Positions 3,880 through 55,368 of a stretch of DNA of 64,000 nt are shown one piece after another. This DNA comes from Bryobacteraceae bacterium (lineage in GTDB: Bacteria > Acidobacteriota > Terriglobia > Bryobacterales > Bryobacteraceae), in contig DASYSG010000045.1 in NCBI GenBank assembly GCA_036003585.1, forward strand, positions 37,094-101,093. The letters run 5' to 3'. Position numbers and translations under genes: made by a program. Under the pieces are notes generated by a model. The model was not told the origin of the DNA and made no database searches. It saw only the letters and a list, made by a program, of their open reading frames with translations. Within the stretch, counting starts at the first letter, position 1. Every line of letters starts with the position of its first letter.

Positions 3880-4333
3880 ATTCGGCAACTTCTTCTGCGA
3901 TCAGATACCGGGCCGACAAGACGACGCGATTCCCTTCGCACGAGATTCGGGTATCGTGCGCCGCCTCTAAAGCCCCGTCATGCAACCGAGCGGTTACATG
4001 ACATGCCACGCTCACCTCTAAATCCGGGTTACTCAACCACCATCGCAATCCCCGACGCGCAATGTCTAAAAGCCCATATCTCGCCGTGATCGGAATGGAT
4101 ACATACCGGCTTGGGCGATCCGCTGGAAATCGGCGAAATCTGCTCGGACCGCAACTCACAGAATGAGTGTGGTGTGTTTCAAACGTTCGCTCACGATTAT
4201 GACTTAGATTATTTCTTCCGTTGTAGTCAATTTTGTAGCTGCCCGGAGCCTCCAGGACCCTCAAACGCCACAGCTTGCTACAGGTGCGCTAGCCAGGCCG
4301 CAACCCGGCATTGCAAATAAATGAGTTGTTTAC

Positions 4334-4384
4334 GTTGGTCGGGGCGGGGCGATTTGAACGCCCGACCCCCTGCGCCCAAGGCAG
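4334..4384 (-). repeat. Orphan copy of the 3' half of tRNA-Pro (distal att-type direct repeat of the island)
   Basis: gttggtcggggcggggcgatttgaacgcccgaccccctgcgcccaaggcag is identical base for base to 55367-55417. The flanking bases differ on both sides (4333 c vs 55366 t; 4385 a vs 55418 g). It contains the anticodon loop to CCA end but no 5' half. Confidence 0.9.
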
Positions 4385-4883
4385 ATTCCGGCCAACCTGC
4401 GGAATGCCCTATTTTCAAGGCCTTCTGTTTCAAACAGTTGCAGGGACCTTGTTGAAGTCGGTTGAATCCCATGGAACTCTTGGATTTCCGCAGCTACAGA
4501 ATTATCTACAGAGGAACTTCGGAACCAGATCGCCAGCTTGAGTATCCTTGCGGATAATCGGTCAGGAAACGCAGAATGGTCGATGCACGTGGAGATTCGT
4601 CCGGTGCTATTCGCGGAGTCACTTCAGCGCGTATCAAATGGCCGAACTTCGCTTTACTTGTACTTAGCGGGAGTCGCGCGGACAGTTGCGGCGTCTTCCG
4701 TGGGTTAGTCTACATCAAGCAGCCTTGCGGTGAGACCGCAAAACCAAACCCTCTAAGAAGGCCTGATAGGTGAGGTGAGCCCTAGGGGACGATTTCAGAA
4801 CATCGTTCTAATAAGTAAGTGGTCGTTGTCCCGGATTGCTAGAAATTGACGGCTACTCGTCGGAAGATTTGCAGCGCCTACTG

Positions 4884-12000: not shown

Positions 12001-12061
12001 CTCGTGCAAACCACACAGCTACGACGACGAGCAGAGGAACGGCCCACAGGGCGCGCTTCAT
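6017..12061 (-). CDS. RHS/YD-repeat polymorphic toxin (2014 aa) with signal peptide, FN3-like domain, inserted F5/8-type-C (discoidin)-like domain and a ~243-aa Cys-rich C-terminal domain
   Basis: Signal peptide MKRALWAVPLLVVVAVWFARGAYS and FN3-like 'DIQWPAASDDANGTGIYDYEIYRNG'. YD repeats include 'YTYDGIGRTLT', 'YSYDSLGHLTGV', 'YTYDNEGRMTAT', 'YMYDSLNRLASAT' and 'YNYDGFGNLTD'. The RHS core end is 'NRYHQPGMGRFITPDSV...NRYSYVEGDPINYFDPRG'. The discoidin-like stretch is 'SSINDGDELGSNWGNSGGWNDAAGPPSWVEIDFAGQKTINEIDVY'. Confidence 0.9.
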   Translation of the reverse strand: MKRALWAVPLLVVVAVWFARGAYSYYYTENGASPVWANWIVQNYNGQLAVYSNGGFGGIAFNSYGGSGRMTYPSTTASPGEVKLTYRMATTTFPGSATVYLSASTDLSAPGAPSAGSGYKIDFQFGSTGSSYSLSRIDSGQFTVVSSGGFGPGHDLMTFRFVRNSTGVILGYVDNVRFLQYSDTTYTSGRMAVELGFDSYQPASGPLLSEIDLGNLDSIAPGAIPSGSISATPFYNHVDIQWPAASDDANGTGIYDYEIYRNGWLVGSTSDLSFSDSTVAPSTTYTYTLKPVDFHGNAAATDFVVTTPAFSPEGRRVGVRTTGAYWGATGENIDVLSGNLNYTLPLINAKARNGWSVGFNLNYNSQDWRYDANRTWKYGADVGYGFGWRLMAGSITPKFADAYSVNYYLFTDSTGAEYRLDQNSGNVWSSKESVYVYYDAAASTLHFRDGSFWYFGCTSAISEADSGVMYPTLMEDANGNQIIVHYKTGLGATWADSSARINTIQDVRTPGTNTYVFNYNADSPPHLTGMNVYVPTGENYTFNYSPNQSLSSPFDSTSYGTVTMLQSVVVIANNTDQEFTYNAFGELTQVVLPYKGYLAYDYSTTTYANNLSYREVVHRRLSKDGVSSTQYPFAHELTPSANIHQFTQLDDPGGVGEKYWAFATSGANAGLVTQYEGRQMPGQVAKIRNDYTWVQDSVGNYYIGTALVTADPGQSYAAQKKTTQSVDTHGNVTQVNTFDYGNLSTPIRTDNFTYQTGSGYASRYIFNRLATSPTTTVTYDEFGLTSLSGILDWDTSMSGITLRGNPTTITSPAGTQTMHYDVAGGVTSTTSNGVTTSLTSTGTTNYAAPSQITVGGFSTSLTYNSFLGLTNETDPNGAQMTIGYDVVARPSSTTSPFGATTTNTYSDTSNPPTVTSAVNGRWTRNSMDGLGRTIKTETGNASGTVSVAETQYDSCGCSPTGKVKQTALPHAPGATPVWTTYTYDGIGRTLTSTTAGTDTTGTTNYLYQGNTVTVTDAAGHWKKYTMNALGQLVQVNEPNPSSSGGGSSTNYALSLNGAVASASSQYSSSYPVSSINDGDELGSNWGNSGGWNDAAGPPSWVEIDFAGQKTINEIDVYTLADCFPNCASITPSQTATSYGISDFQVQYDSAGSWQTVSGGSISSNTLAWNKLTFSSVTTGKIRVNITAAHGGFSRLVELEAWGSGGGNGSEYFTNYSYDSLGHLTGVSMPRSTGTQTRTFNYGNPPGAQLLSATNPENGTVSYTYNSDHTLATKTDAKSQQVQYSYDSYKRVTQIRRGTYTGGTFTEDTCQQENYYYDSGQYGLGRLTSMQYKGGLAYAFGNPSCDHTFTETFTYNSPGGMTSQSLGVSEPAQNYSQGGNISMALTANYTYDNEGRMTATQYPSAWNGSSWVSGPNLGNTFDGMGRLQKLTDLTASSDIIANATYAPTGQLLTMTGASGAPNETRTYNSIGQMTRLQSGSLDIQYAYPTTQNNGKISSQYDNVSGEQITYMYDSLNRLASATGSGWGQSYNYDGFGNLTDQNVTSGTAPALHVTYDPATNRQTGECADANGNLCGSYYSYDVENRFVRKGASWSVTPDVAYSYRPGNKRVWKGTNYVVNDQNWSLPSTDEVTFWSITGQKLATYNLSQYQPGGYYTQPQLVATQTGTNYYFGGKLVKNSTGYVTPDRLGSIGKYFPYGQERPSATQDGKEKFATYFRDSETGLDYANNRYHQPGMGRFITPDSVPASSKDPTSWNRYSYVEGDPINYFDPRGRYQQAPGTPGADDGGGPDPGNCEPSGVNCYPGEDPAFCYYNPNDPECYHPPTDSAGGGGGGGDPVPSVDPNCDRADWLGAQRFVYSTIKGDIDALGIKVAGFTFDMQMAGGHNPGAPSRRADMTELVLRGDAGAYNDLVASICTTVGDPKCFSNAGWDPFHSGMNYRQNVADNSMQITGGFDSQSGQYVINIDIDPHNPSFGPLSGRLGHGWNVIANGFTGGDTNYHNVAAGLSARGIGGGCP

Positions 12062-12814: not shown

Positions 12815-13399
12815 TCAACGCCTGTGTCGAATCGGCCACCGCATATATGAAAGGCTTTCATTGACTGCCTTCACGTTAAACGTATCGATGAAGTGACCGC
12901 CAGCCCAGCGGACATACTGTTTGTACTCTTTGCGAGTGGGATCGAGAATGACATCCAAGAACTCCTGGTATCCTCGAACGCCGCCTACGTCTTCAGGCGG
13001 ACAGCGGCGCTCACCGCCCATGCAGATTGGAGTTTTCACAGCATCGCTCACCGAGATGACTCTCTCCAGGACAACTTCGTGTTCCCAGTCGTCGCCGAAG
13101 TCATATTGGTAGACCATCGACTCGCCTTCCCCCAGGAGCACCGTGGCAAGCCGCGTTTTGCTCTCGTCGATCAGGTCGAATTCATCGAACTCATCCCACT
13201 CGGGAACACCCCAATGCTTCTCCCCCTGGTCGAATTGATGAAGATGACTGTCGGTCCAACCCATCACGACCTGGAGTGCGCTGTGGAGGCAGCACAGCTT
13301 GATCGAGCTGGGAACCTGGAGGCGTCGCCAGATCCGGGGTTCAATTTCCAGGAGCGTGATCTTGAGTTGGTAGATGGGCGGTGCCTTCTTGGTCGGCAT
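12815..13399 (-). CDS. pRiA4b ORF-3-like family protein
   Basis: The N-terminus 'IYQLKITLLEIEPRIWRRLQVPSSIKLCCLHSALQVVMGWTDSHLHQF' and 'YDFGDDWEHEV' match my memory of the PRiA4_ORF3 domain signature. Confidence 0.7.
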   Translation of the reverse strand: MPTKKAPPIYQLKITLLEIEPRIWRRLQVPSSIKLCCLHSALQVVMGWTDSHLHQFDQGEKHWGVPEWDEFDEFDLIDESKTRLATVLLGEGESMVYQYDFGDDWEHEVVLERVISVSDAVKTPICMGGERRCPPEDVGGVRGYQEFLDVILDPTRKEYKQYVRWAGGHFIDTFNVKAVNESLSYMRWPIRHRR

Positions 13400-14863: not shown

Positions 14864-15781
14864 ATGCCTACAACACAAAACTCGATTCCGGAGCACCAAA
14901 ATAATTCCGAATCCTTGAGTCTGATCTCAGGGGCGAATCAGCTATATCGAGCCGTGAAACGAGTTGCCGTCGGCCAGATAGCCTCGACCGTTTGCGTGCC
15001 ACTTGGATTTTCCATAGTTTCACTCATCAATGCGGCGGTAGGGCCTTGGTCAGCGTTGTACAGCTTATTGATCGCCCTAGTGGATCCTCTGTTGTTCGAT
15101 AAATGGCAAAAAATATGGAAGACCCAAGCCGCCAGACTGCAGGAGCAATTCGACTGCGAGCTTTTCGGGCTGAGTTGGAACGAACTGATTTGCGGTCAAC
15201 CGCCATCGGCCGAGCTGATCCACCGCGCCGCTAATCGATACAGGGGGCCTTCCCTCAGAGATTGGTATCCAGTTTCAGTAGGCACGCTTCCGTTGGTGGC
15301 TGCCCGGCTCGTTTGCCAACGATCTAGCATTGCATGGGACTCGGAGCTCAGGCGTCGTTATGTATTCGCGCTAAAAATCGCGGGCGCGATTCTGTTCGCA
15401 AGTGTTCTGGTCATTGCGTTTGCCATAAACCTTTCACTCCAGGGCTTTATTTTTTCGGTGCTAGCTCCTGCGGTGCCCATACTACAGTGGGGCGTTAAGG
15501 AAGTTCAACTACAACAAGATTCCCTAGACCGCCTTGACCGTCTATTCGCATACTCCGATCGTACATGGCGCGAAATGCTTGCTGGGATCGTTGTTGGCGA
15601 TGTTCTTTCGAGCGCATCGAGGGCTATTCAGGACCAACTGTATTTGCATCGTCAATCCAACCAGGCGATCTTGGAGTCGCTATATGGATTCCTGCGACGA
15701 AACCAAGAGCACGAGATGCAGGCTGTAGCCAAAACACTGGTCGAAGCGGCCTCCAAAAACGAATCGCAGTTGGAGAGATGA
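14864..15781 (+). CDS. S-4TM-like membrane protein (SMODS-associated putative pore-forming effector)
   Basis: The N-terminus 'IPEHQNNSESLSLISGANQLYRAVKRV' is followed by hydrophobic helices ('VCVPLGFSIVSLINAAVGPW', 'YSLLIALVDPLLF', 'IAGAILFASVLVIAFAINLSLQGFIFSVLAPAV'). The gene lies 25 nt upstream of a SMODS-type nucleotidyltransferase gene. Confidence 0.6.
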   Translation: MPTTQNSIPEHQNNSESLSLISGANQLYRAVKRVAVGQIASTVCVPLGFSIVSLINAAVGPWSALYSLLIALVDPLLFDKWQKIWKTQAARLQEQFDCELFGLSWNELICGQPPSAELIHRAANRYRGPSLRDWYPVSVGTLPLVAARLVCQRSSIAWDSELRRRYVFALKIAGAILFASVLVIAFAINLSLQGFIFSVLAPAVPILQWGVKEVQLQQDSLDRLDRLFAYSDRTWREMLAGIVVGDVLSSASRAIQDQLYLHRQSNQAILESLYGFLRRNQEHEMQAVAKTLVEAASKNESQLER

Positions 15782-15806
15782 CTTAACAAACTAACTCCAT
15801 AGCAAC

Positions 15807-16667
15807 ATGGCGTACACGGTGGCAGTATCGTTTGACCAATTTATAGATCGAATCAGCATCTCGGGTGATCAGAACTCAACGGCGACCGCCCGACGCGATC
15901 GCGTCGTTTCACTTCTTGAAAACACCTTCACGATCTTGGAAGCGTTCCCCACGGGTTCGATACCGAAACGAACAGCGGTGACGGGGTCAGATCTAGATGT
16001 CATGGTGGTTTTGCATTACGGGAAGCACATTGAGGGAAAGACGCCTACGCAGGTACTTGGATCGGTGCGAAACGCTTTGGCGAAATACCGCACGGGCGTT
16101 CGCCGTAATGGCCAAGCTGTCACCCTTGGCTATGAAAGCTGGCCAGATGTTGACATTGTTCCAGTATCGAGAACTGTGGCTGATAATGGTGACGTACTCC
16201 ACTACAACGTGCCCGATGAGAATCGAGGAGTATGGATACCGTCTAAGCCCAAACGCCATACGACGAACATAGCGAATCGCGTCGCCACATTCGGAACAGA
16301 GTTTCGAAGGATCATTCGAATGCTCAAATGGTGGAATCAGCAACACAGCGAGTATCTTCAGTCATTCCATATCGAGGTCTTGGCGCTTTCGATTTTAAAC
16401 GATAGCTTCTCCGACTATCTCTGGGACCTCCTAAGATTCTTCGATCAGGCTTGCGAACTCGTCAAGGCGCCGTTGCGGTATGAGGGTGCTTATGTCGATG
16501 AGTATCTTACACCGGGAGATAGAGCCGAGGCGTTGAAGCGTTTACAGACGGCTACAGAGAGGTCGCGTCAAGCATGGCACGCAACATATGGAGGACGAGC
16601 GAATCATAAGGAAGCAATCGAGAACTGGAGGCAAGTATTCGGGGACAGATTTCCGGCTTACGGCTGA
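15807..16667 (+). CDS. SMODS/CD-NTase-like nucleotidyltransferase
   Basis: Pol-beta-type NTase signature 'FPTGSIPKRTAVTGSDLDVMVVL' (G-S ... D-x-D) plus a third acidic residue in 'WPDVDIVPV'. The 286-aa size and the adjacent S-4TM-like gene support the call. Confidence 0.65.
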   Translation: MAYTVAVSFDQFIDRISISGDQNSTATARRDRVVSLLENTFTILEAFPTGSIPKRTAVTGSDLDVMVVLHYGKHIEGKTPTQVLGSVRNALAKYRTGVRRNGQAVTLGYESWPDVDIVPVSRTVADNGDVLHYNVPDENRGVWIPSKPKRHTTNIANRVATFGTEFRRIIRMLKWWNQQHSEYLQSFHIEVLALSILNDSFSDYLWDLLRFFDQACELVKAPLRYEGAYVDEYLTPGDRAEALKRLQTATERSRQAWHATYGGRANHKEAIENWRQVFGDRFPAYG

Positions 16668-17403: not shown

Positions 17404-18192
17404 CTACGGGCAGCCTTGGGTTATTTCTGCAAAATCGTCCATCAAAAAACTCCGCCAGAGTGCGCAATCAACGGACGCCGCTACCGGCGAAAACGCCTTC
17501 TGCGTCGCGTACGGCCTGGTGGGTGGTGGGATGTAACCAGGTTCGCCATGTTGGATCAAAATCCCCTGAGCGTCACGAACATGCGGACCGAAATTCACCC
17601 AGCAATTTTGCAATCGCGTTTCTGCCACCAGCGCGGGAATAGCCGCCGGGCTGTGTATGGTCGCGTGAAATCGAAAAGCATTCTCTTCACCAACCGGGCC
17701 GAATTGGAACCCGGTGGCGGCGTGGCCGACGAGATCATGGACGGCACGAAACACATCATTCCATGACCAGCCTGGTGCCGCCCATGCCGCAAGCGGATGA
17801 TCTGGCGGCATGCCGCTGGTCGGATACACGAACAGGCGGCGGTTGCGGCGAACATCCGCCCGCATCTCGCGGCTATTCCGGTACGGCTGCCCATCACCCC
17901 GCCACAGGGAAAAGGTGTAACCAGCCCCGGAGAAAAGCTGGAACTGTTCCCCGATTTCCGCGATGAGCGCCCGGTAGCTTTCGAGCGTCCGGAATTCTAA
18001 CGGGTGTGTCCGGCCTCGTGGTGGGCAGAACCGGGCGAACCGCTCATCGGGCCGGCTCATCTCCCAGTGCGCGGGAAGATCACGCCCACGCCTGCGCGCC
18101 CAGTCCCGGATGATGCCGAGCAGGTGCGGGTTCGGGTCGGGCAAACCGGCACAGACAGACGTTATGTGATGCCGCGTTCGCATAATTCGCAT
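17404..18192 (-). CDS. Hypothetical 262-aa protein, last gene of the Ubl/JAB/E1 cassette
   Basis: Long ORF overlapping the E1 gene end by ~30 nt. 'VFRAVHDLVGHAATGFQFGPVGEENAFRFH' is conserved-looking, but I cannot assign a family. Confidence 0.55.
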   Translation of the reverse strand: MRIMRTRHHITSVCAGLPDPNPHLLGIIRDWARRRGRDLPAHWEMSRPDERFARFCPPRGRTHPLEFRTLESYRALIAEIGEQFQLFSGAGYTFSLWRGDGQPYRNSREMRADVRRNRRLFVYPTSGMPPDHPLAAWAAPGWSWNDVFRAVHDLVGHAATGFQFGPVGEENAFRFHATIHSPAAIPALVAETRLQNCWVNFGPHVRDAQGILIQHGEPGYIPPPTRPYATQKAFSPVAASVDCALWRSFLMDDFAEITQGCP

Positions 18193-18941
18193 TTCTCCCT
18201 CTGCGCAATCATCGAACCGCCATCCAGGCTCGGATCAGAAAGGCTGAGCCGCCGGTAATTCCACGTTCGCGGCCGCTTCATGAGTAGCGTGTCCACGGCG
18301 TAGACCGCGAGCGATCCCACCGCCTGGAGGATGTCGGCGATGGCGGGAGTTCCCGGGCATGGAAAGCGGTCGTCATTCACGATGTCCGGGAACATGCACG
18401 CGATGCAAGGGCCGTCTTTATCCTGGACGAACACGTAGCCATGGTCTGCGTCCCGGCTGACGGCGGTAAAAATGATGGGAATCTCCTTTCGACGGAAGTA
18501 CCAGCCCGCTAAAACGCGGGCCGGATTGTTGTCGACGCCGCAGATCGCGACATCGCAGGTGCTGAAGGGAGTGCCGATCACTTCTTCCAGCGGGAACGGA
18601 TAACCGCGGATCTCCGTTTCCACGATGCACTCCGACTCCAGGTTCCTGGCGAGCGCGATGGCCTTGTTCTCGCCCACATCCTTTATATAGAACCGCTGGC
18701 GGTTAAGATTGCTGGGCTCCACGATGTCGTCATCGACCAGGGTGATCCGCCCGATGCCCTTCCTGACCAGGGTGGGCGCGATTTGTGAGTTGATCCCGCC
18801 CGCCCCGATGCACAGCACGCGGCTTTTCGAGAAGATTGCCTGGTCGAATCCGGAAATCCTCTTTTGCCGATCGTCAGCTCCATCAACTGCTTTGCCATGG
18901 AGCTTAACGGAGGTTTTTGAGTCGGTAAATGCCGGGCGCAT
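18162..18941 (-). CDS. Minimal ThiF/MoeB-type E1-like adenylyltransferase
   Basis: 'SRVLCIGAGGINSQIAPTLVRKGIGRITLVDDDIVEPSNLNRQRF' and Cys pairs 'GPCIACMF', 'FPCPG', 'KCELC'. The start 'MRPAFT' (ATG 18941) was chosen because the paralog at 54117 starts 'MHPAFT'. Confidence 0.8.
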   Translation of the reverse strand: MRPAFTDSKTSVKLHGKAVDGADDRQKRISGFDQAIFSKSRVLCIGAGGINSQIAPTLVRKGIGRITLVDDDIVEPSNLNRQRFYIKDVGENKAIALARNLESECIVETEIRGYPFPLEEVIGTPFSTCDVAICGVDNNPARVLAGWYFRRKEIPIIFTAVSRDADHGYVFVQDKDGPCIACMFPDIVNDDRFPCPGTPAIADILQAVGSLAVYAVDTLLMKRPRTWNYRRLSLSDPSLDGGSMIAQREKCELCERGIT

Positions 18942-19563
18942 AGTGCTCCACTCCTTCGCCGTAGATTTCGAGATCAAAGTTCTGGTCGAGCCGCACGAAA
19001 CGAACGTAACCGTCTCGGCTGAAGATGGCCATCAGGGCCAGATGCCCAGCTTGTTCGAGCCGACGCTGGAAATTCTGATCGGTGCCCGAGGGATGGGTCG
19101 CGTCCGGACCGTTTCCTGGGTGGCTGTGAAAGTGGGCCAGGAATTTGTGCCCGAACTGTTCGAGCCGGATCAGCAGATTGTGGGTGGATGGCATGTCCGC
19201 CACTACGCCCATCCGGCTGCGGCGCTGGTGAGCGAACTCTGCCCACTGATCGAGGACGTGCACGCCCTCGATCTCCGAGCCCGTGATGAAAAAGAACTGC
19301 TCATCCGGATCGGCTGTCAGCTTCTTCGCGCATTCATGCAAGAACAAAGAACTGACGGCGTAGCGCCGCGGCTGATCCCCTGTCCGGGTGTTTTCTTCAA
19401 CGATCCGGTCAAGGCTCGCGAGAAATTCGTTCGTCCGCCGGATTTCCGTTGTGAAGCGCGCGGTGCCTTTACGGGCACGCGCCGCGTCATTGAACCGGCC
19501 GATCAGCTTTTCGCGCTTCTCGACCAGCACTTTCTTCTTTTCGTCGATATGGGTAGTTTTCAT
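18904..19563 (-). CDS. JAB/MPN (JAMM) metallopeptidase-like protein
   Basis: 'FLAHFHSHPGNGPDATHPSGTD' is an HxH...SxxD motif with a longer spacer. The ATG at 19563 overlaps the upstream stop as ATGA (19560-19563). Confidence 0.75.
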   Translation of the reverse strand: MKTTHIDEKKKVLVEKREKLIGRFNDAARARKGTARFTTEIRRTNEFLASLDRIVEENTRTGDQPRRYAVSSLFLHECAKKLTADPDEQFFFITGSEIEGVHVLDQWAEFAHQRRSRMGVVADMPSTHNLLIRLEQFGHKFLAHFHSHPGNGPDATHPSGTDQNFQRRLEQAGHLALMAIFSRDGYVRFVRLDQNFDLEIYGEGVEHYAPGIYRLKNLR

Positions 19564-19952
19564 TGTTCGTATGCCTCTGTGATCAGTCGTTCGATGGTTA
19601 TGATTCCCGAGCTCACATCTTTGGGCCGTCGCGCCATATGCACCAGATACCAGTCGTCTCCGCGAGGAGCAAAACAGGTCCAATGGCTGTGGCGTCGAAT
19701 CTGCCGCGAGGGACTATAAAGGAAGAAATCGATGCTCGACCAACGCTCCTGGATCTGGCCTTGAAAGGTCGCGTACGCGGTCTGATACGATCCCGTGTAG
19801 TTGTTGCCGTTGCGCGTCCAGCCGCGTTCCCGCCAATACGGAATTTCACGGCGCAGGACGGAAATTGAGGGGGCGTGCCCCCGTACCACCTGCGAGAAGA
19901 GCTCGCGGATGGCATTGGGGGCAGGCCGGGTGCCGAGTTCTTTTACGCGCAT
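19560..19952 (-). CDS. 130-aa protein in the E2 position of the cassette; candidate E2/RWD-like fold
   Basis: It lies between the Ubl and JAB genes with overlaps at both ends. 'IDFFLYSPSRQIRRHSHWTCFAP' resembles a flap-plus-Cys arrangement. The fold call is weak. Confidence 0.5.
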   Translation of the reverse strand: MRVKELGTRPAPNAIRELFSQVVRGHAPSISVLRREIPYWRERGWTRNGNNYTGSYQTAYATFQGQIQERWSSIDFFLYSPSRQIRRHSHWTCFAPRGDDWYLVHMARRPKDVSSGIITIERLITEAYEQ

Positions 19953-20179
19953 ACGGTGATGCCAACCTCGGCTTTGGTGCTCGCGAAAATCTTCTCGCCA
20001 TCTTTCACTTTGTCGTAGACCGACTCGGCATTGGCGAAGAAGGGCTCATTCGGTCCCTTGCTTAACAGGTAGTCTGCAAGGTTCAACTGGGCGAGGATGT
20101 CACCGGCGGTCGTGCCCGACTCGATTTCCACATCCCGGATCTGACCGGTTCCGGCGACAACGACGGATAGCTTTTTCAT
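19943..20179 (-). CDS. 78-aa candidate ubiquitin-like (beta-grasp) protein
   Basis: The ATG at 20179 is preceded by AAGGAGAA (revcomp of 20187-20194). 'MKKLSVVVAGTGQIRDVEIESGTTAGDILAQLNL...GEKIFASTKAEVGITVCA'. The small size and position upstream of the E2-like/JAB/E1 genes fit a Ubl. Confidence 0.55.
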   Translation of the reverse strand: MKKLSVVVAGTGQIRDVEIESGTTAGDILAQLNLADYLLSKGPNEPFFANAESVYDKVKDGEKIFASTKAEVGITVCA

Positions 20180-20310
20180 GATGTAAATTCTCCTTATATT
20201 AAAATCTGGGAGGCGGGTCCTCTCCCCTGCGGGTTGATCGATACGCCGCCCATCGTGGGCGGCGAAAAAAAGGAAGAGGCCAAGAAGATTCTTGGCCTCA
20301 GGGCGCCGGT

Positions 20311-20622
20311 TCATAAGTCCTGCGCGGGTACCACATCCGTGAGCCTGCCCTCGCGGAACGAAAGATCGCGTTCCACGGCGAGGCCGAGCCAAGTCCGGAC
20401 ACGTTCGAGCTCCGAGAGCAGAAAATAGCCGAACTCGCTTTCCAGGCCCACGACAAAACCAAAGAACAAATAATCGTCTTCCTGCTGGCTGCCTTCCGTG
20501 ACGTACCATGTCCATCCGGTACCCGGCAGGAAGAACTTCGCGTAAACGACGGGCTCGGCTTCGTGCTCCTGGGAATAGAGAGCCGGAAGCCGGTTCCGCA
20601 GTTCGTCAGTCAGAAGCTTCAC
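20311..20622 (-). CDS. DUF2958-like protein
   Basis: 'LRNRLPALYSQEHEAEPVVYAKFFLPGTGWTWYVTEGSQQEDDYLFFGFVVGLESEFGYFLLSELE' matches the DUF2958 pattern I know from plasmids and ICEs. The GTG start overlaps the integrase-frame stop as GTGA (20619-20622). Confidence 0.7.
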   Translation of the reverse strand: MKLLTDELRNRLPALYSQEHEAEPVVYAKFFLPGTGWTWYVTEGSQQEDDYLFFGFVVGLESEFGYFLLSELERVRTWLGLAVERDLSFREGRLTDVVPAQDL

Positions 20623-21866
20623 GGCTTCACCCCTTTCGTTATTCGGACTCGAACAGCTTTCGCGCTTCCTCGAATTTCTGGAGCTGCCGCCGCTTCCTTT
20701 TCAACACCTCGTCCATTTCGGCGATCTCGGCTTTCAGCTTGTCGGCTTGCTCCAGGACCACCTCCACGGGACTCTTTTTCCTCCACGGTTTCCGCTCCGG
20801 CGTCGCCGTGGTTACTTTCGGACTGGTCGGTTTCTGAATTGCCATTTGTTTTCTCCTTTTGCTGTCGTTGTTGGTCGTCGACCCATCGCTCGAGTTTCCG
20901 GATCGCTTCACGCTTGACCGGGAGCTCGATATGGGTATATAAAGAGTGAATTTTCGAGCCGGTGGAGTGGCCCATGAGCGCCATGCGGATTTCCTGCATG
21001 ACGCCGGCCTCCATCAGGCGCGTATTGAATGTGTGTCTGAGATCGTGGAAACGTACGTGTCGGATGGATGCGTTCGTGAGCGCAGTCTTCCAACCACGTT
21101 TCACGATGCGGACCGGATGGCCCCGAAAGTTGATGAGGAGTCCCTCCGACCGGCGGTGTTCCCATAGGAACGTGTAGAGCCGTTCGGTAAGAGGGATCTC
21201 GCGTGATTCGCCTTCGGGTGTTTTCGAGCGCGTGACGAAGAGCACCTTTTGGGAAAAATCCACGTCCTCCCATTTCTGGCTGGTGATTTCGCCACGCCGC
21301 ATCCCGGTGTCGAGTGCGATCACGATCATGGCGCGGAGATGGTCTTTCGCGGTACCGAGAAGCAATACTTCCTCGGCGACACTCAGAACTTGGCGGCGAG
21401 TGCGACGCTCTCGCGCCATTTTCATGCGGGTCAGCGGATTTGCAGCGAGAAGCTGCTCATCGACCGCCCAATACAGGATGTGCCGGAGGACGCTCAAATC
21501 CCGGTTGATGGTCGCGTCCTTGATCGCCTGGTTCCTGTTGCGGCGGACCTTCCGAAATTCATCCGCAAGAGATTTCGTGATTCTCAAGGCGGGAAATTCG
21601 GAGAAGAACGGCAACAGGAGCTTCAGGTGATACAGGTGATGCGGACGGACGTAACCGCCCGCGATGAATCGCGCGGCGAGCTCGCCGAAGGTCATCGTGG
21701 GATCGGACTGGACGATTTGGAATCGCCGGTCATTCAATTCCTGTTTGAGCTTGTCTTCGACTTTCTCGGCCTGTTTCCGGTTCGAAGTCCCCGTGGAGTA
21801 CTGATACCGGATGCCGTCTCGATACAGGTATGCCCACCACACGTTGCCGCGTTTCAAAAGGCTCAC
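20619..21866 (-). CDS. Tyrosine recombinase / phage-type integrase
   Basis: The GTG start at 21866 is preceded by AAGGAG and gives the typical N-terminus 'SLLKRGNVWWAYLY'. Catalytic-region motifs are 'ALDTGMRRGEI', 'VRFHDLRHTFNTRLMEAGV' and 'MGHSTGSKIHSLYTH'. The ~85-aa low-complexity C-terminal tail may not be genuine. Confidence 0.85.
   Translation of the reverse strand: MSLLKRGNVWWAYLYRDGIRYQYSTGTSNRKQAEKVEDKLKQELNDRRFQIVQSDPTMTFGELAARFIAGGYVRPHHLYHLKLLLPFFSEFPALRITKSLADEFRKVRRNRNQAIKDATINRDLSVLRHILYWAVDEQLLAANPLTRMKMARERRTRRQVLSVAEEVLLLGTAKDHLRAMIVIALDTGMRRGEITSQKWEDVDFSQKVLFVTRSKTPEGESREIPLTERLYTFLWEHRRSEGLLINFRGHPVRIVKRGWKTALTNASIRHVRFHDLRHTFNTRLMEAGVMQEIRMALMGHSTGSKIHSLYTHIELPVKREAIRKLERWVDDQQRQQKEKTNGNSETDQSESNHGDAGAETVEEKESRGGGPGASRQAESRDRRNGRGVEKEAAAAPEIRGSAKAVRVRITKGVKP
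20639..20845 (-). CDS. 68-aa coiled-coil protein embedded in the 3' tail of the integrase ORF
   Basis: The ATG at 20845 is preceded by AAAAGGAGAAAACAA. The product is 'MAIQKPTSPK...VVLEQADKLKAEIAEMDEVLKRKRRQLQKFEEARKLFESE'. Confidence 0.5.
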   Translation of the reverse strand: MAIQKPTSPKVTTATPERKPWRKKSPVEVVLEQADKLKAEIAEMDEVLKRKRRQLQKFEEARKLFESE

Positions 21867-22204
21867 GATAGCGTTACTCCTTTCTGCTGGCGCGCGAGGA
21901 GCCAGCGGGTGATCTGCGTTTTGTAAAAGATCAACTTTCCGTTGGGCGTGAGGCGATGGTGTGGCAGCCCGGCAGGCAGGTACCGCTGCCGTACCGTCCA
22001 GGGAGAACATCCGATGACGCGGGCGACTTCCCGGATCGAGAGCGGCGCGCCCAGGGGTCCCGTGCTGGCGGCGGCCTCTTCCGGGTGCGGGTACTGCTGC
22101 GGGTAGCTATGCCCTACCTGGATCGGTTCAAAACCCAGCAATTGCTTGGATGTCTTGCCGGGCTTGAAACCCGAATTGCGTCTTAGCTGACGCCTTCCGT
22201 CCAT
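21863..22204 (-). CDS. Excisionase-family HTH protein
   Basis: The C-terminal 'LSIREVARVIGCSPWTVRQRYLPAGLPHHRLTPNGKLIFYKTQITRWL' is an excisionase/AlpA-type HTH. Its stop overlaps the integrase GTG as GTGA (21863-21866). The true start may be downstream of 22204. Confidence 0.65.
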   Translation of the reverse strand: MDGRRQLRRNSGFKPGKTSKQLLGFEPIQVGHSYPQQYPHPEEAAASTGPLGAPLSIREVARVIGCSPWTVRQRYLPAGLPHHRLTPNGKLIFYKTQITRWLLARQQKGVTLS

Positions 22205-22636
22205 CTAGTCGCCTCCCCCGCGCTCACGGTCACGTCTCCGTCTGAGCAGCTTGTAGAGTTGGCTGCGGAACCACTGCGGGATCTGGCTCCAGGCCCACCA
22301 GAGAATCCCGAAGGGAATCGTGAGGAGAGCCAGTGCAACGATCATGTCGGGTCGCTGAAGGATGGCAATGACGGCTGCCAGTACGACAACGATTGAGGCA
22401 GTGCCAAGAAAGAATCCCGGAACGACCGAGAGAAGGAACCCGAGCGTCGGAGCCCAACCCGGACGCCGAGGCTGCGGAGTGGAAAGGTCTCGACTTCCGC
22501 ACTGGGAACACGCCTCCGCGGTCCGGGGATTCACATGCCGCCGGGGACAGAGCTTTACATCGTACGTGCGAGAGCAGTAATTACAATAAAGCGGCTCGCC
22601 CGGCGTGATGTGGTTGCAGTTGAAACAGTATTTCAT
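22205..22636 (-). CDS. Double zinc-ribbon membrane protein
   Basis: 'MKYCFNCNHITPGEPLYCNYCSRTYDVKLCP...CSQCGS' is followed by two or three hydrophobic helices. The ATG at 22636 lies 5 nt after the upstream stop codon. Confidence 0.55.
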   Translation of the reverse strand: MKYCFNCNHITPGEPLYCNYCSRTYDVKLCPRRHVNPRTAEACSQCGSRDLSTPQPRRPGWAPTLGFLLSVVPGFFLGTASIVVVLAAVIAILQRPDMIVALALLTIPFGILWWAWSQIPQWFRSQLYKLLRRRRDRERGGGD

Positions 22637-22641
22637 GGAAT

Positions 22642-23418
22642 TCACAGAAGCGGTTGGCGCTCTTCGCCGGTTGGCCTCTGCCAAATCGGAGACCAGACTT
22701 TCCCACTGGTAACGGCGTCCAGCGTGGTGAACCAGAAGATCTTCTCGGTGACCATTGCGGTAACAGCGCGGAGCGAGGCCATGCGGCGTTCCGAATTCGC
22801 AACGACGAGCGTTCGAAACTGCGGTTGATTGAACTGCGTGGTGAAACTGCCGGAGACGGCGTAACGCAGGTATCCCTGGACCTTTTTCTGCCAGATCGAT
22901 CGGCTTTCATGTCCAAGATCAATCTCAAGAAACATCGCGAGCGTTTTGGTGGAGGTCACGACTTCCGCATAGCCGTCCGGAATGAGCGGGATGCCCGAGA
23001 AAAGTGGCTCGTAGAAACTCAACCAACGAACAAAGCGTGCATCAGCAACCGGGATCGGGTGGTATTTCAAAAGGCAGTACACCTGGTTGATCCACAATTG
23101 ATGCGTCACGAAGAAATCGGCGGCGAGGGTCTGATCGGTCGCCCGACGCGGACCACGGTACAGCACCTCAACCAGCGCGGCACCCTTCGGCGACTGGGCA
23201 TAGAGCGCCTTCCTTGCGCCGCCCACGGTTCCCAGGAAGAACCTCCGCAGGAATCCGGCGCGCGTGAGCATCAGCAATCGGTTGTTGGCGCGCGTGGTCG
23301 ACCCGAATCCGGCCACGCGTTTGGCTTGCTCGCGGTCGATGACACGCATCACGCCGAGTTCTCGGAGCAAATGCCGGTCGCGGTCCTGGAGGATGATTCC
23401 CTGATTATTCCCAGTCAT
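22642..23418 (-). CDS. Replication-relaxation (Replic_Relax) family protein
   Basis: 'ILQDRDRHLLRELGVMRVIDREQAKRVAGFGSTTRANNRLLMLTRAGFLRRF' is the wHTH pattern of the family. The ATG at 23418 overlaps the ATPase gene end by 14 nt. Confidence 0.6.
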   Translation of the reverse strand: MTGNNQGIILQDRDRHLLRELGVMRVIDREQAKRVAGFGSTTRANNRLLMLTRAGFLRRFFLGTVGGARKALYAQSPKGAALVEVLYRGPRRATDQTLAADFFVTHQLWINQVYCLLKYHPIPVADARFVRWLSFYEPLFSGIPLIPDGYAEVVTSTKTLAMFLEIDLGHESRSIWQKKVQGYLRYAVSGSFTTQFNQPQFRTLVVANSERRMASLRAVTAMVTEKIFWFTTLDAVTSGKVWSPIWQRPTGEERQPLL

Positions 23419-24784
23419 TGAGGACCTCGGTGTTTCCGCGAACGACCATCCCCTGCCGCGCGCGGATTTCTTCTTCGATGTCTTTACGATTTCGCGCCCA
23501 GCGCACCCGCGAGCGGGCAAGGAGATCTTTCGGATCGGCCTTTGGCTCATGGACGGTGGGTACCACCGCTTCACGCCAGCGTTCATTCCCGGTTTTCACA
23601 ACCATATGGCGCCGTTGCAGATTCTTCAGAAGTTCCGCGAGCGGCTTCCCGCCATCCAGCGCGGCGGCGATCTGTTGAGCATCGGAGCTCGAAAGCTGGA
23701 AGAAAATGTGCGTGCCGACCGCGAGGATCGCCGCGCGCATTTCTGCCGGGTATTGATCCAGGAATTGATTTGCAGAGACTATTCCGCAACCAAATTTGCG
23801 CGCCTCAGATAAGATTTCTTCAAGACCGCTGCCGAAGGCGACCAAATTCTGGATCTCGTCACAATACAAGGTGAAGAGTTCCCGGCGTTTCCGGGCGAAC
23901 AGCGCATGCCGTGCCTTTGCGAGAAACAGACTCCCGAGCGTAAGGGCCTGCTCCCCCAACCTTCCTTTATCAAGCACGAGAACTATCCAGCACCCACGGT
24001 CCAAGGCATCAACCACGGAAAACGTCGAGCGTTGCTGGCCGATGATTCTGCGGAAGCGCGGATCGGACGTGAAGGCCGACGTCTTGTTGAGGATGGGCTC
24101 GGCCAGGACACCTCTCATCGCGTCGCTCACCGTGTCGTAACGGAGCTCGAAGTACTGCTTCACCTCCGGGTTGCTCACCTTCGCGAGGCAGCGTGACCGG
24201 AATCCAGCGTGGCCGAGGAGCGGCCCGAGTTCTACCAGCGTGAGGCTGTTATCGGCGAGTACGTAGAGGCTATTCCGCAACAGCTCTTCCGTCCGTGCTC
24301 CGAACGATTCCAGATGGAAGCGTTGTTTGAGAATTTGCGCGAACTCTGCTATCCGGACGAACCTTTCGTCACCACCCTCGTCTTCGAGCGGGTTGAGGCC
24401 AACAGAAAACTCCGGACTACTCGGATCGATCACGATCAGGCGATCGCTCAGATCTCGCTTCAAAACGCGCTCGCGGGCCGCTATGGTTTTGAGCAAAAAC
24501 TCCGATGTGTCGCCGTGCAAGTCGAAATGCAGAAATCCCCGACCCGCATGGATGTCTTGAGAGGCTAAGTAGCGGATGAGCGACGACTTTCCAACGCCTG
24601 TCTTTCCCAGGATCGCGACGCTTTCCGCGCGGCGGCCTTGGGGAACTACCACGCGATTGTGCGTAATCACCTCGTCCGAAACCTGAGCCCCAAGGTCAAG
24701 GGCCCGGCTATCAGCAGGTTCCCCGTGCTCGGTAACGCGCCGGTTCCAGCCCCGGGCTATTTTGGTTTCGAACCACTTCAACAT
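23405..24784 (-). CDS. VirD4/TraD/FtsK-HerA-superfamily P-loop ATPase (coupling-protein-like, no N-terminal TM)
   Basis: Walker A 'ILGKTGVGKSSL' and Walker B 'FTLYCDEIQNL', plus 'GIVSANQFLDQYP'. The 459-aa size and the adjacent Replic_Relax gene fit. Confidence 0.65.
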   Translation of the reverse strand: MLKWFETKIARGWNRRVTEHGEPADSRALDLGAQVSDEVITHNRVVVPQGRRAESVAILGKTGVGKSSLIRYLASQDIHAGRGFLHFDLHGDTSEFLLKTIAARERVLKRDLSDRLIVIDPSSPEFSVGLNPLEDEGGDERFVRIAEFAQILKQRFHLESFGARTEELLRNSLYVLADNSLTLVELGPLLGHAGFRSRCLAKVSNPEVKQYFELRYDTVSDAMRGVLAEPILNKTSAFTSDPRFRRIIGQQRSTFSVVDALDRGCWIVLVLDKGRLGEQALTLGSLFLAKARHALFARKRRELFTLYCDEIQNLVAFGSGLEEILSEARKFGCGIVSANQFLDQYPAEMRAAILAVGTHIFFQLSSSDAQQIAAALDGGKPLAELLKNLQRRHMVVKTGNERWREAVVPTVHEPKADPKDLLARSRVRWARNRKDIEEEIRARQGMVVRGNTEVLNDWE

Positions 24785-24908
24785 GCGATGAGAATATGGG
24801 TGACGGCGAGCAAAACGGTAACAAACGGGATTCGCGGATCACGACGAGGAGCGCTCAGCGTGGCGTCGAAGATCCTGATTTCCCTGGGCTTATCCCGGGA
24901 TCGGGGGC

Positions 24909-25667
24909 TCAGCGGAAGTTAGTGATCAGAAGCTCACGAAACCGCTTGCCAGCTTTCATCTGTGACGTGTAGGGAAGCTCAATTTCCCGGAGCGTGAAGT
25001 CATGGAAGAGTTCTCGCACCCTGGGCACGTCGTTCAACGAGAGAACGAACTTGCCTTGCAGGTGGCGGAGCTGTTCCGCAAGATTCGCGAAGTCATCGTC
25101 AGTGAAATTGAATCGGTACAACGCACGGCCCCAGTACGGCGGATCCAGATAGAACAACGTGGTTCGCCGGTCAAACCGTTTGAGGATATCGGAGTACGGC
25201 AGACACTCAATCTGAACCCGCTCAAGTCTCTTGTGTGCATTTTCAAGGAGCTGGGGAAGGCGTCCGGGATTGAAACTCGGCGGTCCAACAACGGCGTAAC
25301 GGTATCTTCGGTTACGAATCAAGCCTGCGAAAGCGTTTTTCTGGAGATAGAAAAAGCGGGCGGCGCGCTGGACATCGGTCAGTGCGTCGGGGTTTTCGGA
25401 CTCGAAGAGTGCGAACCATTTCCGGCTGACGAGGATGAACTTGAGATACCGGAGAAGTTCCTCATGATGGCGCTGGCAGATCCGAAAGAAGTTCACCACG
25501 TCGCTGTTCAAGTCGTTCAGGACCTCGACGGCGGACGGGTCTTTGTGAAAGAACACCTGCGCGCCGCCAGCAAACGCTTCAACGTACGTCGTGTGCTTCG
25601 GAAAGATCTCGATGATCTTCGCGGCGATGCGATTCTTCCCTCCTATATATGCGAGCGGTCCGATCAT
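24909..25667 (-). CDS. Dam-type (D12 class) N6-adenine DNA methyltransferase, orphan
   Basis: 'YIGGKNRIAAKI', 'YVEAFAGGAQVF' (motif I) and 'LFYLDPPYWG' (motif IV). No restriction-enzyme gene lies nearby. Confidence 0.8.
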   Translation of the reverse strand: MIGPLAYIGGKNRIAAKIIEIFPKHTTYVEAFAGGAQVFFHKDPSAVEVLNDLNSDVVNFFRICQRHHEELLRYLKFILVSRKWFALFESENPDALTDVQRAARFFYLQKNAFAGLIRNRRYRYAVVGPPSFNPGRLPQLLENAHKRLERVQIECLPYSDILKRFDRRTTLFYLDPPYWGRALYRFNFTDDDFANLAEQLRHLQGKFVLSLNDVPRVRELFHDFTLREIELPYTSQMKAGKRFRELLITNFR

Positions 25668-30612: not shown

Positions 30613-30852
30613 ATGACGGATTTCGAGCAGCTGCAAAAACTGGTTGGGCCGGAGGTAAACAATTGGAGCGAAGCGGAGCGGCAGGAGGCGAATGACAACT
30701 TGCGCCAGTACGTCGCTCTCGTGCTGCGTGTTCTTGAACGGCTCGAACTCGATCCGGAAGCAAACGCGCGCTTTGAAGCTTTGACAGAGTGTCGAAGGGG
30801 CCATAGTATGAATGACAAAGAGGCGCAAAACAATTCTTCGACCCATACATGA
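30613..30852 (+). CDS. Small protein coupled to the serine recombinase gene
   Basis: The ATG at 30613 gives 'MTDFEQLQKLVGPEVNNWSEAERQEANDNLRQYVALVLRVLERLE'. Its stop overlaps the recombinase start as ATGA (30849-30852). Confidence 0.45.
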   Translation: MTDFEQLQKLVGPEVNNWSEAERQEANDNLRQYVALVLRVLERLELDPEANARFEALTECRRGHSMNDKEAQNNSSTHT

Positions 30853-50343: not shown

Positions 50344-50344
50344 C

Positions 50345-52316: not shown

Positions 52317-52338
52317 GCAGTACTCCTTTTTGCGGTTT

Positions 52339-53220: not shown

Positions 53221-54117
53221 TCATCTATTACGATTAATCGTATAATACGACGTATCGGCCCGGAAGTCAATAGGGTGCGTTTCGAGTCCCAGTGCACCAG
53301 CTTGTGTCGATTGCAGCCGCAAACGGTAAGAACGCCATTTGCTTCGGGTTTTACATAATTCACATGCCTTCCTCTGCATGATCATTGAGCCACCGTCGAA
53401 CTTCGGATCAGACAGGCTGAGCCGCCGGTAATTCCACGCGCGCGGCCGCTCCGTGGTTAGCGTGTCCACAGAATAGACTGCGGGCGATCCGACCGCCTGC
53501 AATACGTCGGTGATGGCAGGTGTTCCCGGACACGGATAGCGGTCGTCGTTCACGATGTCTGGAAACAGGCACGCGATGCACGGGCCGTCCTTGTCCTGAA
53601 CGAACACGTAGCGGTGATCAGCGTCGCGGCTGACGGCGGTGAAGATGCCCGGAATCTCCTTCGCGCGGAAGTACCAGCTCGCCGTGACACGAGCCGGATT
53701 GTTGTCCACGCCGCAGATCACAACGTCACAGGCGAGATCGATGCCGCGGGCGATCGCGTCCTCAAACTGCAATGGGTAGCCGCGGATATTTGTCGCAACG
53801 ATACATTCCGGCTGAAGATTCCGGGCCAGGGCGATCGCCTTGTTCTCGCCAATATCCTTCACATAAAACCTCTGGCGGTTCAGGTTGGTCGGTTCGACTA
53901 CGTCATTATCGAGTACGGTGATCTGCCCGACGCCTTTGCGCACGAGCGTCGGTGCGATCTGGCACATGATCCCGCCCGCCCCGATGCACAGGACGTGGGC
54001 GCGAGTAAAAGTCTCCTGATCAAACCCGAGGATCTATCGCTGGCGGTCCAGGGCTCCGGTGATCGCCTGGCCGCGCAATTCAATCGAGGTTCTTGAGCCG
54101 GTAAACGCCGGGTGCAT
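53221..54117 (-). pseudogene. Decayed paralog of the ThiF-type E1 gene at 18162..18941, interrupted by an in-frame TAG
   Basis: The start 'MHPAFTGSRTSIELRGQAITGALDRQR' runs into TAG (54034-54036) and continues in the same frame as 'ILGFDQETFTRAHVLCIGAGGIMCQIAPTLV...'. About three quarters of residues match copy 1 by eye. DNA homology ends near 53350 and the normal stop is lost. Confidence 0.7.
53229..53250. promoter_or_regulatory. Array of inverted TACGA half-sites (candidate operator) 27-48 nt upstream of the WYL gene start
   Basis: TACGATTAATCGTA (53229-53242) is a perfect 14-bp palindrome. TCGTA-TAA-TACGA (53238-53250) shares the middle half-site. AT-rich hexamers (TATTAT / TAATAG on the minus strand) overlap it. 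Confidence 0.5.
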
Positions 54118-54400
54118 ATATTTCAACTCCTGCGCCAAGGATTTCAAGTTCACAATTCCGGTCGAGCCGGATGAAGTGGACGTAGCCGTCCCGGCTAAAG
54201 ATCGCCATGAGTGCCATATGTCCAGCCCTTTCGAGCCGACGCTGGAAGTTCTCATCGGTTCCCGAAGGATGCGTCGCGTCAGGCCCCCGGCCGGGATGAC
54301 TGTGGAAGTGCGCCCGCAAAACCTCCGGCCTATGCCAACTTTTCTTCGCGTCGTAAGTAGGCAGCCGATTCAATTGCATCCCGGTGGGCCTGCCACGCAC
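54080..54400 (-). pseudogene. 5'-truncated paralog of the JAB gene at 18904..19563
   Basis: 'LRAHFHSHPGRGPDATHPSGTDENFQRRLERAGHMALMAIFSRDGYVHFIRLDRNCELEILGAGVEIYAPGVYRLKNLD' aligns with the C-terminal ~80 aa of copy 1. The N-terminal ~140 aa are absent. Confidence 0.7.
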
Positions 54401-55360: not shown

Positions 55361-55368
55361 GATTCTGT

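Follow-up and report, generated by a model that had tools for sequence, protein, structure and literature searches.

A 64,000-nucleotide stretch of DNA from a Bryobacteraceae bacterium (assembly GCA_036003585.1, contig DASYSG010000045.1, positions 37,094 to 101,093), referred to here as the window, carries on its minus strand (20179-17404) a cassette of five successively overlapping genes that lies downstream of excisionase, integrase and DUF2958 genes. In order, the cassette encodes a ubiquitin-like protein (Ubl) of 78 amino acids (aa), a 130-aa Cys-His protein (p130), a 219-aa JAB-type (JAMM) metallopeptidase, a 259-aa E1-type activating enzyme and a 262-aa protein (p262). A comparative scan using one genome per species yielded 56 related loci, and Ubl, p130, JAB and E1 occur together in ~95% of them. 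The cassette is likely to be a Ubl/E1/JAMM protein-modification module, and in our judgment the balance tilts slightly toward the fuller reading that it is a minimal ubiquitination-like tagging pathway built into the backbone of a mobile element. To date, ubiquitin-like conjugation in bacteria has been linked to immunity against phages (CBASS type II, Bil and Bub); this module stands out by its wide spread, its constant backbone place beside a coupling-type ATPase and a nickase, and its undescribed Cys-His partner. No description of this cassette was found in the searchable literature, which is not proof of novelty.

Protein components of the cassette

The first gene (19943..20179, minus strand) encodes the Ubl precursor and has AAGGAG located 10 nt 5' of its ATG, matching the strong ribosome-binding site reported in a first-pass annotation of the sequence. 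Its product has no family match in Pfam, NCBIfam (E <= 0.1) or PADLOC, and 501 homologous clusters were found at 80-100% identity. An AlphaFold2 (AF2) model (86 sequences, pLDDT 85) has a beta-beta-alpha-beta...beta order, and in a Foldseek comparison with the PDB its top match was human ubiquitin (TM-score 0.73); Caldiarchaeum ubiquitin, ISG15, NEDD8 and 8tyx_A, which is the bacterial Ubl BilA complexed with its deubiquitinase, were matched, like ubiquitin, with a probability of 1.00. Sulfur carriers were found far lower in the list (TtuB at rank 47, TM-score 0.57). Based on this model, we are confident that the 78-aa protein is a ubiquitin-like beta-grasp, as the first-pass annotation had proposed.

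The C-terminal sequence ...STKAEVG is invariant among homologs of this Ubl. Its last residue, Gly73 (codon 19963-19961), is followed by a tail of 4-6 residues that varies in both sequence and length (the five residues ITVCA in the window; also VLLCA, VAAWAA and DRALCA), and the terminal Cys-Ala is simply dictated by the start of the following gene, which overlaps this end. The earlier observation that Gly is not the last residue of the Ubl is thus correct as worded but incomplete, since Gly73 is invariant and only the tail varies. The combination of an invariant Gly73 and a variable tail indicates that the Ubl is a precursor. The accompanying suggestion that such an end would require JAB processing fits this combination and would parallel the pattern of BilA, in which a universally conserved Gly is followed by at most nine non-conserved residues that are removed by the JAB enzyme BilC (PMC10557695). 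Likewise, BubCD's JAB domain cuts the Ubl-E2 fusion BubAB after a conserved Gly (PMC11601596). In the 23 loci where DUF87, Replic_Relax, integrase, p130, JAB and E1 are all found together with the Ubl, no other protein of the element is conserved nearly as strongly as the Ubl (median identity 86%, against 44-68% for each of the remaining backbone proteins). Ubiquitin itself is likewise known for its extreme conservation. Across loci L005-L060 (e.g., L040, 9771-10007), conservation of the Ubl exceeds that of integrase, ATPase, nickase, p130, JAB and E1, and one Ubl from a distant locus matches SAMP2 weakly.

The third gene (18904..19563, minus strand, ATG at 19563) encodes a 219-aa protein that matches Pfam Prok-JAB at 5.1e-5 (23.6 bits, just under the cutoff of 25) and has no NCBIfam match at E <= 0.01; a longer open reading frame (ORF) containing the gene matches the NCBIfam desampylase model at E 0.042. 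The JAMM residues (E88, H146xH148 and S159xxD162) are conserved to at least 95% in 55 orthologs from the related loci, the motif spacer being 10 residues in this family instead of 7, and an N-terminal extension of ~85 aa is weakly conserved. Distant orthologs in L064 and L065 likewise match Prok-JAB. Since the JAMM residues are conserved, the protein called a JAB in the first-pass annotation is an active-looking JAMM metallopeptidase.

The fourth gene (18162..18941, minus strand) encodes a single-domain protein of 259 aa, the size of MoeB, in agreement with the minimal ThiF-type E1 of ~260 aa that had been predicted. It matches Pfam ThiF at 4e-30, among PDB entries E. coli MoeB (1jw9) is its best match over the full length, and it aligns end to end with the 249-residue MoeB, without a second adenylation domain and without an insertion. 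The motifs G46xGG, R25, R81, K93 and D137 and the Zn site C179xxC182/C251xxC254 are conserved in 55 orthologs, and the crossover-loop residue C195 (codon 18359-18357), also conserved, aligns with MoeB Cys187. Generic ThiF/MoeB models score 83-90 bits on this protein, the SAMP-activating E1 (UbaA) 67.6 bits and PRTRC_ThiF 43.4 bits; PADLOC E1-E2 models match down to 6.7e-19 and Cap2 chains in the PDB at ~1e-9. From its alignments, the 259-aa protein is a minimal MoeB/ThiF-type E1 with a complete adenylation site.

The second gene (19560..19952, minus strand) encodes p130, with Cys93 at codon 19676-19674 and His105 at codon 19640-19638. We found 456 close homologs, and a profile search of 1.84 billion representatives retrieved 820 clusters (50% identity) at E <= 0.001. 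The conserved core spans residues ~28-130; among 121 diverse members, W45, G54, G65 and C93 are invariant, and at least 90% of them keep W40, P81, P82, F94, H105, I117 and E121. No match to p130 was found in Pfam, NCBIfam (E <= 0.1), PADLOC or PHROGs, the 121 diverse relatives had no Pfam match, and profiles from the close and diverse alignments retrieved either nothing or only chance xylosidase matches from PDB sequences. At the level of primary sequence, p130 is thus an undescribed Cys-His protein family with no match to a described one.

In the AF2 model of p130, residues 41-130 form a core (pLDDT ~90) in which a four-strand meander is followed by a Pro-Pro turn and two short helices ending at C93, and then by a beta-hairpin that starts at the Cys and closes at H105, after which a single long helix forms the C-terminus. 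In the PDB, Foldseek placed the C-terminal domain of MotA first for this model (E 0.17) and no E2 among the top 50 matches; a Fanconi core-complex chain at rank 34 (TM-score 0.41/0.50, E 2.1) was treated as uninformative. The first-pass annotation had taken p130 for an E2 candidate and pointed to the Pfam Prok-E2 families, none of which matches p130 or its 121 diverse relatives. An E2/RWD-like fold was not detected by Foldseek, hidden Markov model searches or hhalign, and E2/UBC/RWD homology is accordingly unsupported in Pfam, NCBIfam, PADLOC, PHROGs, PDB profiles, Foldseek and hhalign, a remote relation being possible. The order of secondary-structure elements is compatible with that of the non-canonical E2s Cap2, ATG3 and ATG10, in which the catalytic Cys lies on the beta5-beta6 hairpin; this likeness of a predicted model is a resemblance, not evidence.

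Among the 150 best p130 family representatives, 29 are single polypeptides in which an N-terminal Ubl, a junction of the form ...(E/D)VG(G/S) and a 30-60-residue linker precede the p130 core, whereas the Ubl and p130 of the window are unfused and their genes instead overlap by 10 nt. A programmed frameshift that would yield a Ubl-p130 fusion at this overlap was considered and rejected, as the sequence has no slippery site. Fourteen of the 150 representatives have a predicted transmembrane helix, a hint that in such elements the enzyme works at the membrane, and two have tandem p130 repeats with the Cys kept in one repeat only. Such architectures are seen in the relatives P0301, P0306, P0299 and P0436, which are either tandem (Cys in the second repeat only) or carry N- or C-terminal transmembrane helices.

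The gene after E1 (17404..18192, minus strand), the last of the operon in this copy, encodes p262. It matches phrog_3170 (function unknown) at 2e-16 and has neither a Pfam or NCBIfam match (the latter at E <= 0.1) nor, in profile searches, a PDB match. Its relatives with 36-44% identity occur in actinobacterial biosynthetic clusters (L066 and L067) that encode PLP enzymes, S-adenosylmethionine (SAM) methyltransferases and enzymes for SAM recycling, beside Aminotran_5, SAM methyltransferase, Cys_Met_Meta_PP, S-methyltransferase and AdoHcyase genes, and its pattern H132...H152-D153...H157...H176...H204 recalls HD-domain metal sites. p262 was rejected as a core component, as it has only 49 homologs and follows E1 in only 2 of 51 related loci. 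The slot is taken by a ParB_N+MT-A70 fusion in 27 of these loci and by neither gene in 22, so the 262-aa gene does not always follow E1, a regularity the first-pass annotation had raised, and a gene with a ParB domain is the commonest partner instead. The statement that no ParB homolog is present accordingly holds for the window but not for its relatives, where such a gene occupies the slot of p262 in more than half of the loci. From this distribution, p262 is an accessory enzyme outside the core module, and the gene after E1 is an exchangeable accessory. Within the element, p262 stands in for the SAM-dependent ParB-MT-A70 gene; enzymes of the ParB-methyltransferase type were suggested by Iyer et al. 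to protect transferred DNA from restriction (PMC4738411).

The shared strand and the overlaps given in the first-pass annotation all hold: the Ubl and p130 genes share 10 nt (ATGCGCGTAA) at 19943-19952, p130 and JAB share ATGA at 19560-19563, JAB and E1 share 38 nt at 18904-18941, and E1 and p262 share 31 nt at 18162-18192. The lengths of 78, 130, 219 and 259 aa were recovered by independent gene calls on related contigs (L001). The ORFs are real rather than chance occurrences, given the homologous clusters for Ubl (501), p130 (456) and p262 (49), the ThiF match of 4e-30 and the conserved JAMM motif. The five genes probably form one translationally coupled operon, and this operon probably has its own promoter, because a terminator-like hairpin (20276..20299, minus strand; a stem of 10 bp, 6 of them GC pairs, followed by a T-rich tail) separates the DUF2958 gene from the Ubl gene; the hairpin is a pattern match only, the total of terminator-like sites in the region being not above the shuffled expectation.

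Conservation within a mobile-element backbone

The 56 loci are almost all from Acidobacteriota (Bryobacterales, Terriglobia and Solibacteraceae), with a few outliers, and include a cultured carrier, Paludibaculum fermentans T20B24, which makes the system testable. Counting neighbors only where flanks were available, p130 is accompanied by Ubl in 49 of 52 loci, by JAB in 53 of 54 and by E1 in 51 of 54, as well as by an integrase (33/39), Replic_Relax (31/38) and a DUF87/TraD-like ATPase (31/38), while DUF2958 is frequent, not universal (34/49). The genes are therefore co-conserved, as the first-pass annotation had anticipated for related elements, and they are tied to an integrase-bearing element. 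The usual order is D12 methyltransferase, variable genes, ATPase, Replic_Relax, zinc-ribbon protein, Xis, Int, in some cases DUF2958, and then Ubl, p130, JAB, E1 and one variable slot; the backbone order of the window recurs in L001-L044. In addition, in the distant loci L055, L064 and L065, Ubl-p130-JAB-E1 lies directly upstream of TraG-D_C/TrwB-type ATPase and Replic_Relax genes, and in L064 and L065 the cassette genes overlap them. Gene content and order thus suggest that, as a module, the cassette belongs to the backbone of a family of acidobacterial mobile elements that integrate at tRNA genes. A phage or plasmid origin was rejected, since no p130 relative was found in INPHARED (50,697 phage records), PLSDB (72,556 plasmids) or IMG/VR contigs.

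In the window, the DUF2958 gene (20311..20622, minus strand; Pfam DUF2958 2.7e-12) lies upstream of the Ubl gene, and Pfam, NCBIfam and PHROG matches place the remaining element backbone at 20619..25667 on the same strand. This backbone comprises a tyrosine integrase (Phage_integrase 2.8e-23), a helix-turn-helix/excisionase-like ORF, a double-zinc-ribbon protein, a Replic_Relax nickase-like protein, a DUF87/TrwB-TraD-like ATPase and a D12 adenine methyltransferase. The Pfam matches agree with the earlier placement of the cassette downstream of excisionase, integrase and DUF2958 genes.

Proposed pathway and its alternatives

In the tagging pathway that we slightly favor, the Ubl would be made as a precursor from which the JAMM peptidase removes the five-residue tail after Gly73, a step that we infer from the invariant Gly, the variable tail and the Ubl-p130 fusions of relatives. 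The E1, presumably as a homodimer, would adenylate Gly73 and may hold the Ubl as a thioester on Cys195; the motifs for this chemistry are seen in its sequence. From there the Ubl would move to Cys93 of p130, with His105 as general base or activator, and p130 would act as the conjugating enzyme and probably also as target selector. The Ubl would then be attached to target lysines, and the JAMM enzyme could reverse the attachment. We regard the proposal that p130 is a thioester-carrying conjugating enzyme as evenly balanced, its E2-like role being suggested, by analogy, from genomic context. If it is such an enzyme, p130 would be an E2 that has diverged extremely or else a non-homologous answer to the same chemistry, and in both cases would bear on how E2s originated.

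Of the described systems, the module would, by analogy, work most like Bil (BilABCD; Iyer et al. 2006 classes 6c/6d, types I and II). The gene order Ubl, Cys protein, JAB, E1 equals BilA-B-C-D, a single ubiquitin-like beta-grasp has a conserved Gly and a short variable tail that in Bil is removed by the JAB enzyme, C93 and H105 of p130 (12-residue spacing) are comparable to BilB Cys138 and His151, and the JAMM peptidase with its conserved motif corresponds to BilC. Nevertheless, BilD is a large IAD-AAD-CYS E1, whereas the E1 here is a 259-aa single adenylation domain with a crossover-loop Cys only; BilB is a recognizable UBC-fold E2, whereas p130 conserves Cys93 and His105, with no UBC fold or Prok-E2 family detected in it; and Bil is an anti-phage system, whereas the module described here is fixed in a mobile-element backbone.

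Several results weigh against the proposed pathway. A Foldseek search of the p130 model against the PDB and BFVD returned nothing at E <= 0.001, hhalign comparisons of p130 with four canonical E2s and with the Prok-E2_E of the window gave probabilities of at most 0.2%, and confidence is low for the first 40 residues in the p130 model. The Pfam score of the JAB is slightly under the gathering cutoff. Furthermore, every chemical step (target, thioester and cleavage) is read from sequence, a role in transfer or establishment is deduced from synteny, and the known relatives that share this logic (Bil, Bub and CBASS Cap2/Cap3) are anti-phage systems.

The lack of a detected E2 fold in p130 would be accounted for if tagging were E2-independent, as in the archaeal SAMP/UbaA/JAMM and Thermus TtuB/TtuC systems, with the E1 alone driving Ubl attachment and p130 serving as a Cys-His peptidase or regulator (like the Ser-His protease BubE/DUF6527), an adaptor or an acceptor; we consider this explanation unlikely. 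In its favor, the E1 scores 67.6 bits on the SAMP-activating E1, the longer ORF containing the JAB gene matches the desampylase model (E 0.042) and a distant Ubl matches SAMP2 weakly. SAMP/UbaA/HvJAMM1 and TtuB/TtuC also combine, as the cassette does, a MoeB-like E1 of a single domain with a small modifier of beta-grasp type and a JAMM peptidase, but they are without a fourth Cys protein, their modifiers end in Gly-Gly without a tail and double as sulfur carriers, and the cassette scores far below the equivalog cutoffs. BubE, for its part, is a compact beta-rich domain with an invariant nucleophile and His 10 residues apart, hydrophobic extensions and no structural homologs, and p130 parallels it in having C93/H105, transmembrane-bearing relatives (14/150) and no Foldseek matches. 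However, p130 is without the four-Cys zinc cluster of BubE, hhalign shows no relation between p130 and the DUF6527 protein of the window (probability 0.2%), a JAMM peptidase is already there for cleavage, the precedent for fusion is Ubl-E2 (BubAB) rather than Ubl-protease, and the operon position of p130 is that of the E2 in Bil.

The likeness to the Bub/6E/DUF6527 system (PMC11601596) extends beyond the resemblance in outline between p130 and BubE, a small beta-rich protein with a nucleophile-His pair and no structural homologs. Both have a minimal homodimer-type E1, Bub releases its Ubl by JAB cleavage after a conserved Gly, as proposed here, and Ubl-partner fusions are found in both (BubAB; Ubl-p130 in 29/150 relatives). 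In contrast, Bub uses Ser/Tyr oxyester chemistry without a catalytic Cys, whereas here p130 has an invariant Cys and the E1 loop a conserved one. In addition, JAB and E1 are separate genes here, and the cassette is without DUF6527 and Prok-E2_E, hhalign showing no relation to the copies of these proteins in the window.

The same pathway might instead be carried for the host, tagging phage proteins as Bil and Bub do. All characterized bacterial Ubl/E1/E2/JAB operons act in phage defense, and the island containing the cassette has many genes of defense and conflict: a CBASS pair, RHS toxins and a Bub operon that includes a WYL regulator. We nonetheless find this anti-phage role improbable. The cassette is an invariant part of the backbone, whereas the true defense cargo (CBASS) is unique to this copy, and distant elements have the cassette in one operon with the coupling ATPase and nickase. 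Moreover, no PADLOC defense model matches Ubl, p130 or JAB, and no CapW/CapH-CapP-type regulator is attached to the cassette. The first two of these points, together with the weakest argument, that the usual downstream partner is a ParB-methyltransferase, favor a role centered on the element (its own transfer or establishment) rather than host defense; we consider such a role plausible, if somewhat short of evenly balanced.

Taken as a whole, the proposition that the tagging pathway represents a fourth, undescribed bacterial ubiquitination-like lineage beside CBASS Cap2/Cap3, Bil and Bub, with a new Cys-His conjugating fold unrelated to UBC E2s and serving the DNA transfer of the element rather than phage defense, is tentative and on the unlikely side. 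If true, its substrates during transfer or establishment could, for example, be the relaxase-like nickase, the coupling ATPase or factors of the host, and were the targets indeed transfer or host proteins, this would be the first ubiquitin-like tagging by a mobile element for its own spread.

A sulfur-carrier system of the ThiS/ThiF, CysO/Mec+ or QbsE/QbsD/QbsC type, in which Gly73 would be thiocarboxylated after JAB trimming, Cys93 of p130 would be the persulfide donor and the product would be a thio-modified metabolite or nucleic acid, is very improbable. The E1 is MoeB/ThiF-like and relatives of p262 adjoin Aminotran_5 and sulfur-amino-acid enzymes, both of which would suit such a system. 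QbsE has a C-terminal extension that is taken off by a JAMM enzyme. JAB-trimmed, E1-like carrier systems have also been catalogued (Iyer et al. 2006, rows 4b-4d). Yet the Ubl model fits ubiquitin, NEDD8 and BilA far better than TtuB, no rhodanese domain or cysteine desulfurase is present in the cassette or the related loci, the Ubl-p130 fusions with 30-60-aa linkers and the transmembrane anchors are better suited to protein conjugation, and p262 is absent from ~96% of loci.

Least credible is that the cassette is a divergent member of PRTRC (ParB-related, ThiF-related cassette; TIGR03734-03742), the family of proteobacterial plasmids and integrative and conjugative elements to which the first-pass annotation had likened it: a ThiF-type E1 on a mobile element and a ParB_N-containing gene after E1 in 27 of 51 relatives are shared themes, but the matches to PRTRC_ThiF (TIGR03736, 43.4 bits against a curated cutoff of 144.75) and, for the ParB_N+MT-A70 protein of the relatives, to PRTRC_parB (TIGR03734, 24.8 against 278.6) are far under cutoff and are exceeded by those to the generic models of ThiF/MoeB and ParB, none of the cassette proteins is matched by a model for PRTRC A, B, C, D, E or F, the ParB of the relatives is a methyltransferase fusion, the hosts are Acidobacteriota with integrative elements rather than proteobacterial plasmids, and the 72,556 plasmids hold no p130 homolog. 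The comparison with PRTRC is therefore one of analogy only. No report on the function of PRTRC cassettes was found in the literature, and the tagging pathway might by analogy throw light on them.

With type II CBASS Cap2/Cap3 the cassette shares similarity in the E1 adenylation domain, a JAB partner and a mobile-island context, but in Cap2 an E2 is fused to an E1 and the protein conjugated is the CD-NTase itself, with no Ubl. By their descriptions, classes 6a-6e of Iyer et al. 2006 are likewise set apart from the cassette, which fits none of them.

The surrounding island and its cargo

A 59-nt direct repeat at 4326-4384 and 55359-55417, corresponding to the 3' part of tRNA-Pro(TGG), bounds an island of ~51 kb. 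The tRNA-Pro(TGG) at 55369-55445 is canonical and the copy at 4336-4411 has a degenerate 5' half. The same repeat, together with a conserved element-end sequence, is found 6-8 kb downstream of E1 in L010, L018 and L035. Adjoining the genuine tRNA is a decayed second JAB-E1 copy (53350..54313, minus strand) with 72-80% DNA identity to 18159-19138. By tblastn, JAB' consists of only the C-terminal 76 aa (83% identity), the N-terminal two thirds including the catalytic Glu having been lost, and E1' (73% identity) has an in-frame stop at codon 28. The island is thus probably made up of two related elements integrated in tandem, the older of which has eroded. Since it is a decayed paralog of the JAB-E1 pair of the cassette, the ThiF ORF at 53221-53967 is a remnant and not part of the neighboring Bub operon.

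Beyond the decayed copy lies a complete Bub/6E-type operon (48092-53202, minus strand), which the first-pass annotation had counted as the first such cassette of the window. All on the minus strand, it comprises an HTH-WYL regulator (52339-53202), Prok-E2_E (51676-52074; 1.7e-11), a JAB-ThiF fusion (50345-51712), a 577-aa protein with a weak TCAD9 match (48610-50343) and DUF6527/BubE (48092-48616; 4.4e-17). Apart from the E1 fold, this operon has no sequence relation to the cassette described here.

On the opposite strand, ~740 bp from the cassette end, is a CBASS-like pair (14864-16667, plus strand), in which an S_4TM effector (3.9e-81) is followed by a SMODS CD-NTase ending ...FPAYG. The pair is type I-like (SMODS+S_4TM) and not conserved with the cassette. 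A functional link between the two was rejected: the CD-NTase ends in Gly, yet the pair, like the other neighboring cargo genes, was found in none of the related loci. From this pattern of occurrence, the CBASS pair is cargo of this copy.

The island also includes genes for two RHS-repeat proteins of 2014 and 1800 aa (6017-12061 and 40002-45404, both minus strand), each of them within the cargo that lies downstream of one copy of the cassette, and a PRiA4_ORF3 gene (12815-13399) adjoins the first of them. Finally, a large serine recombinase (30849-32438, plus strand; Resolvase, Recombinase and zinc ribbon) provides the same island with a second, independent recombination function, and DNA similarity to its 5' end is found in several related loci (L059 and L039).

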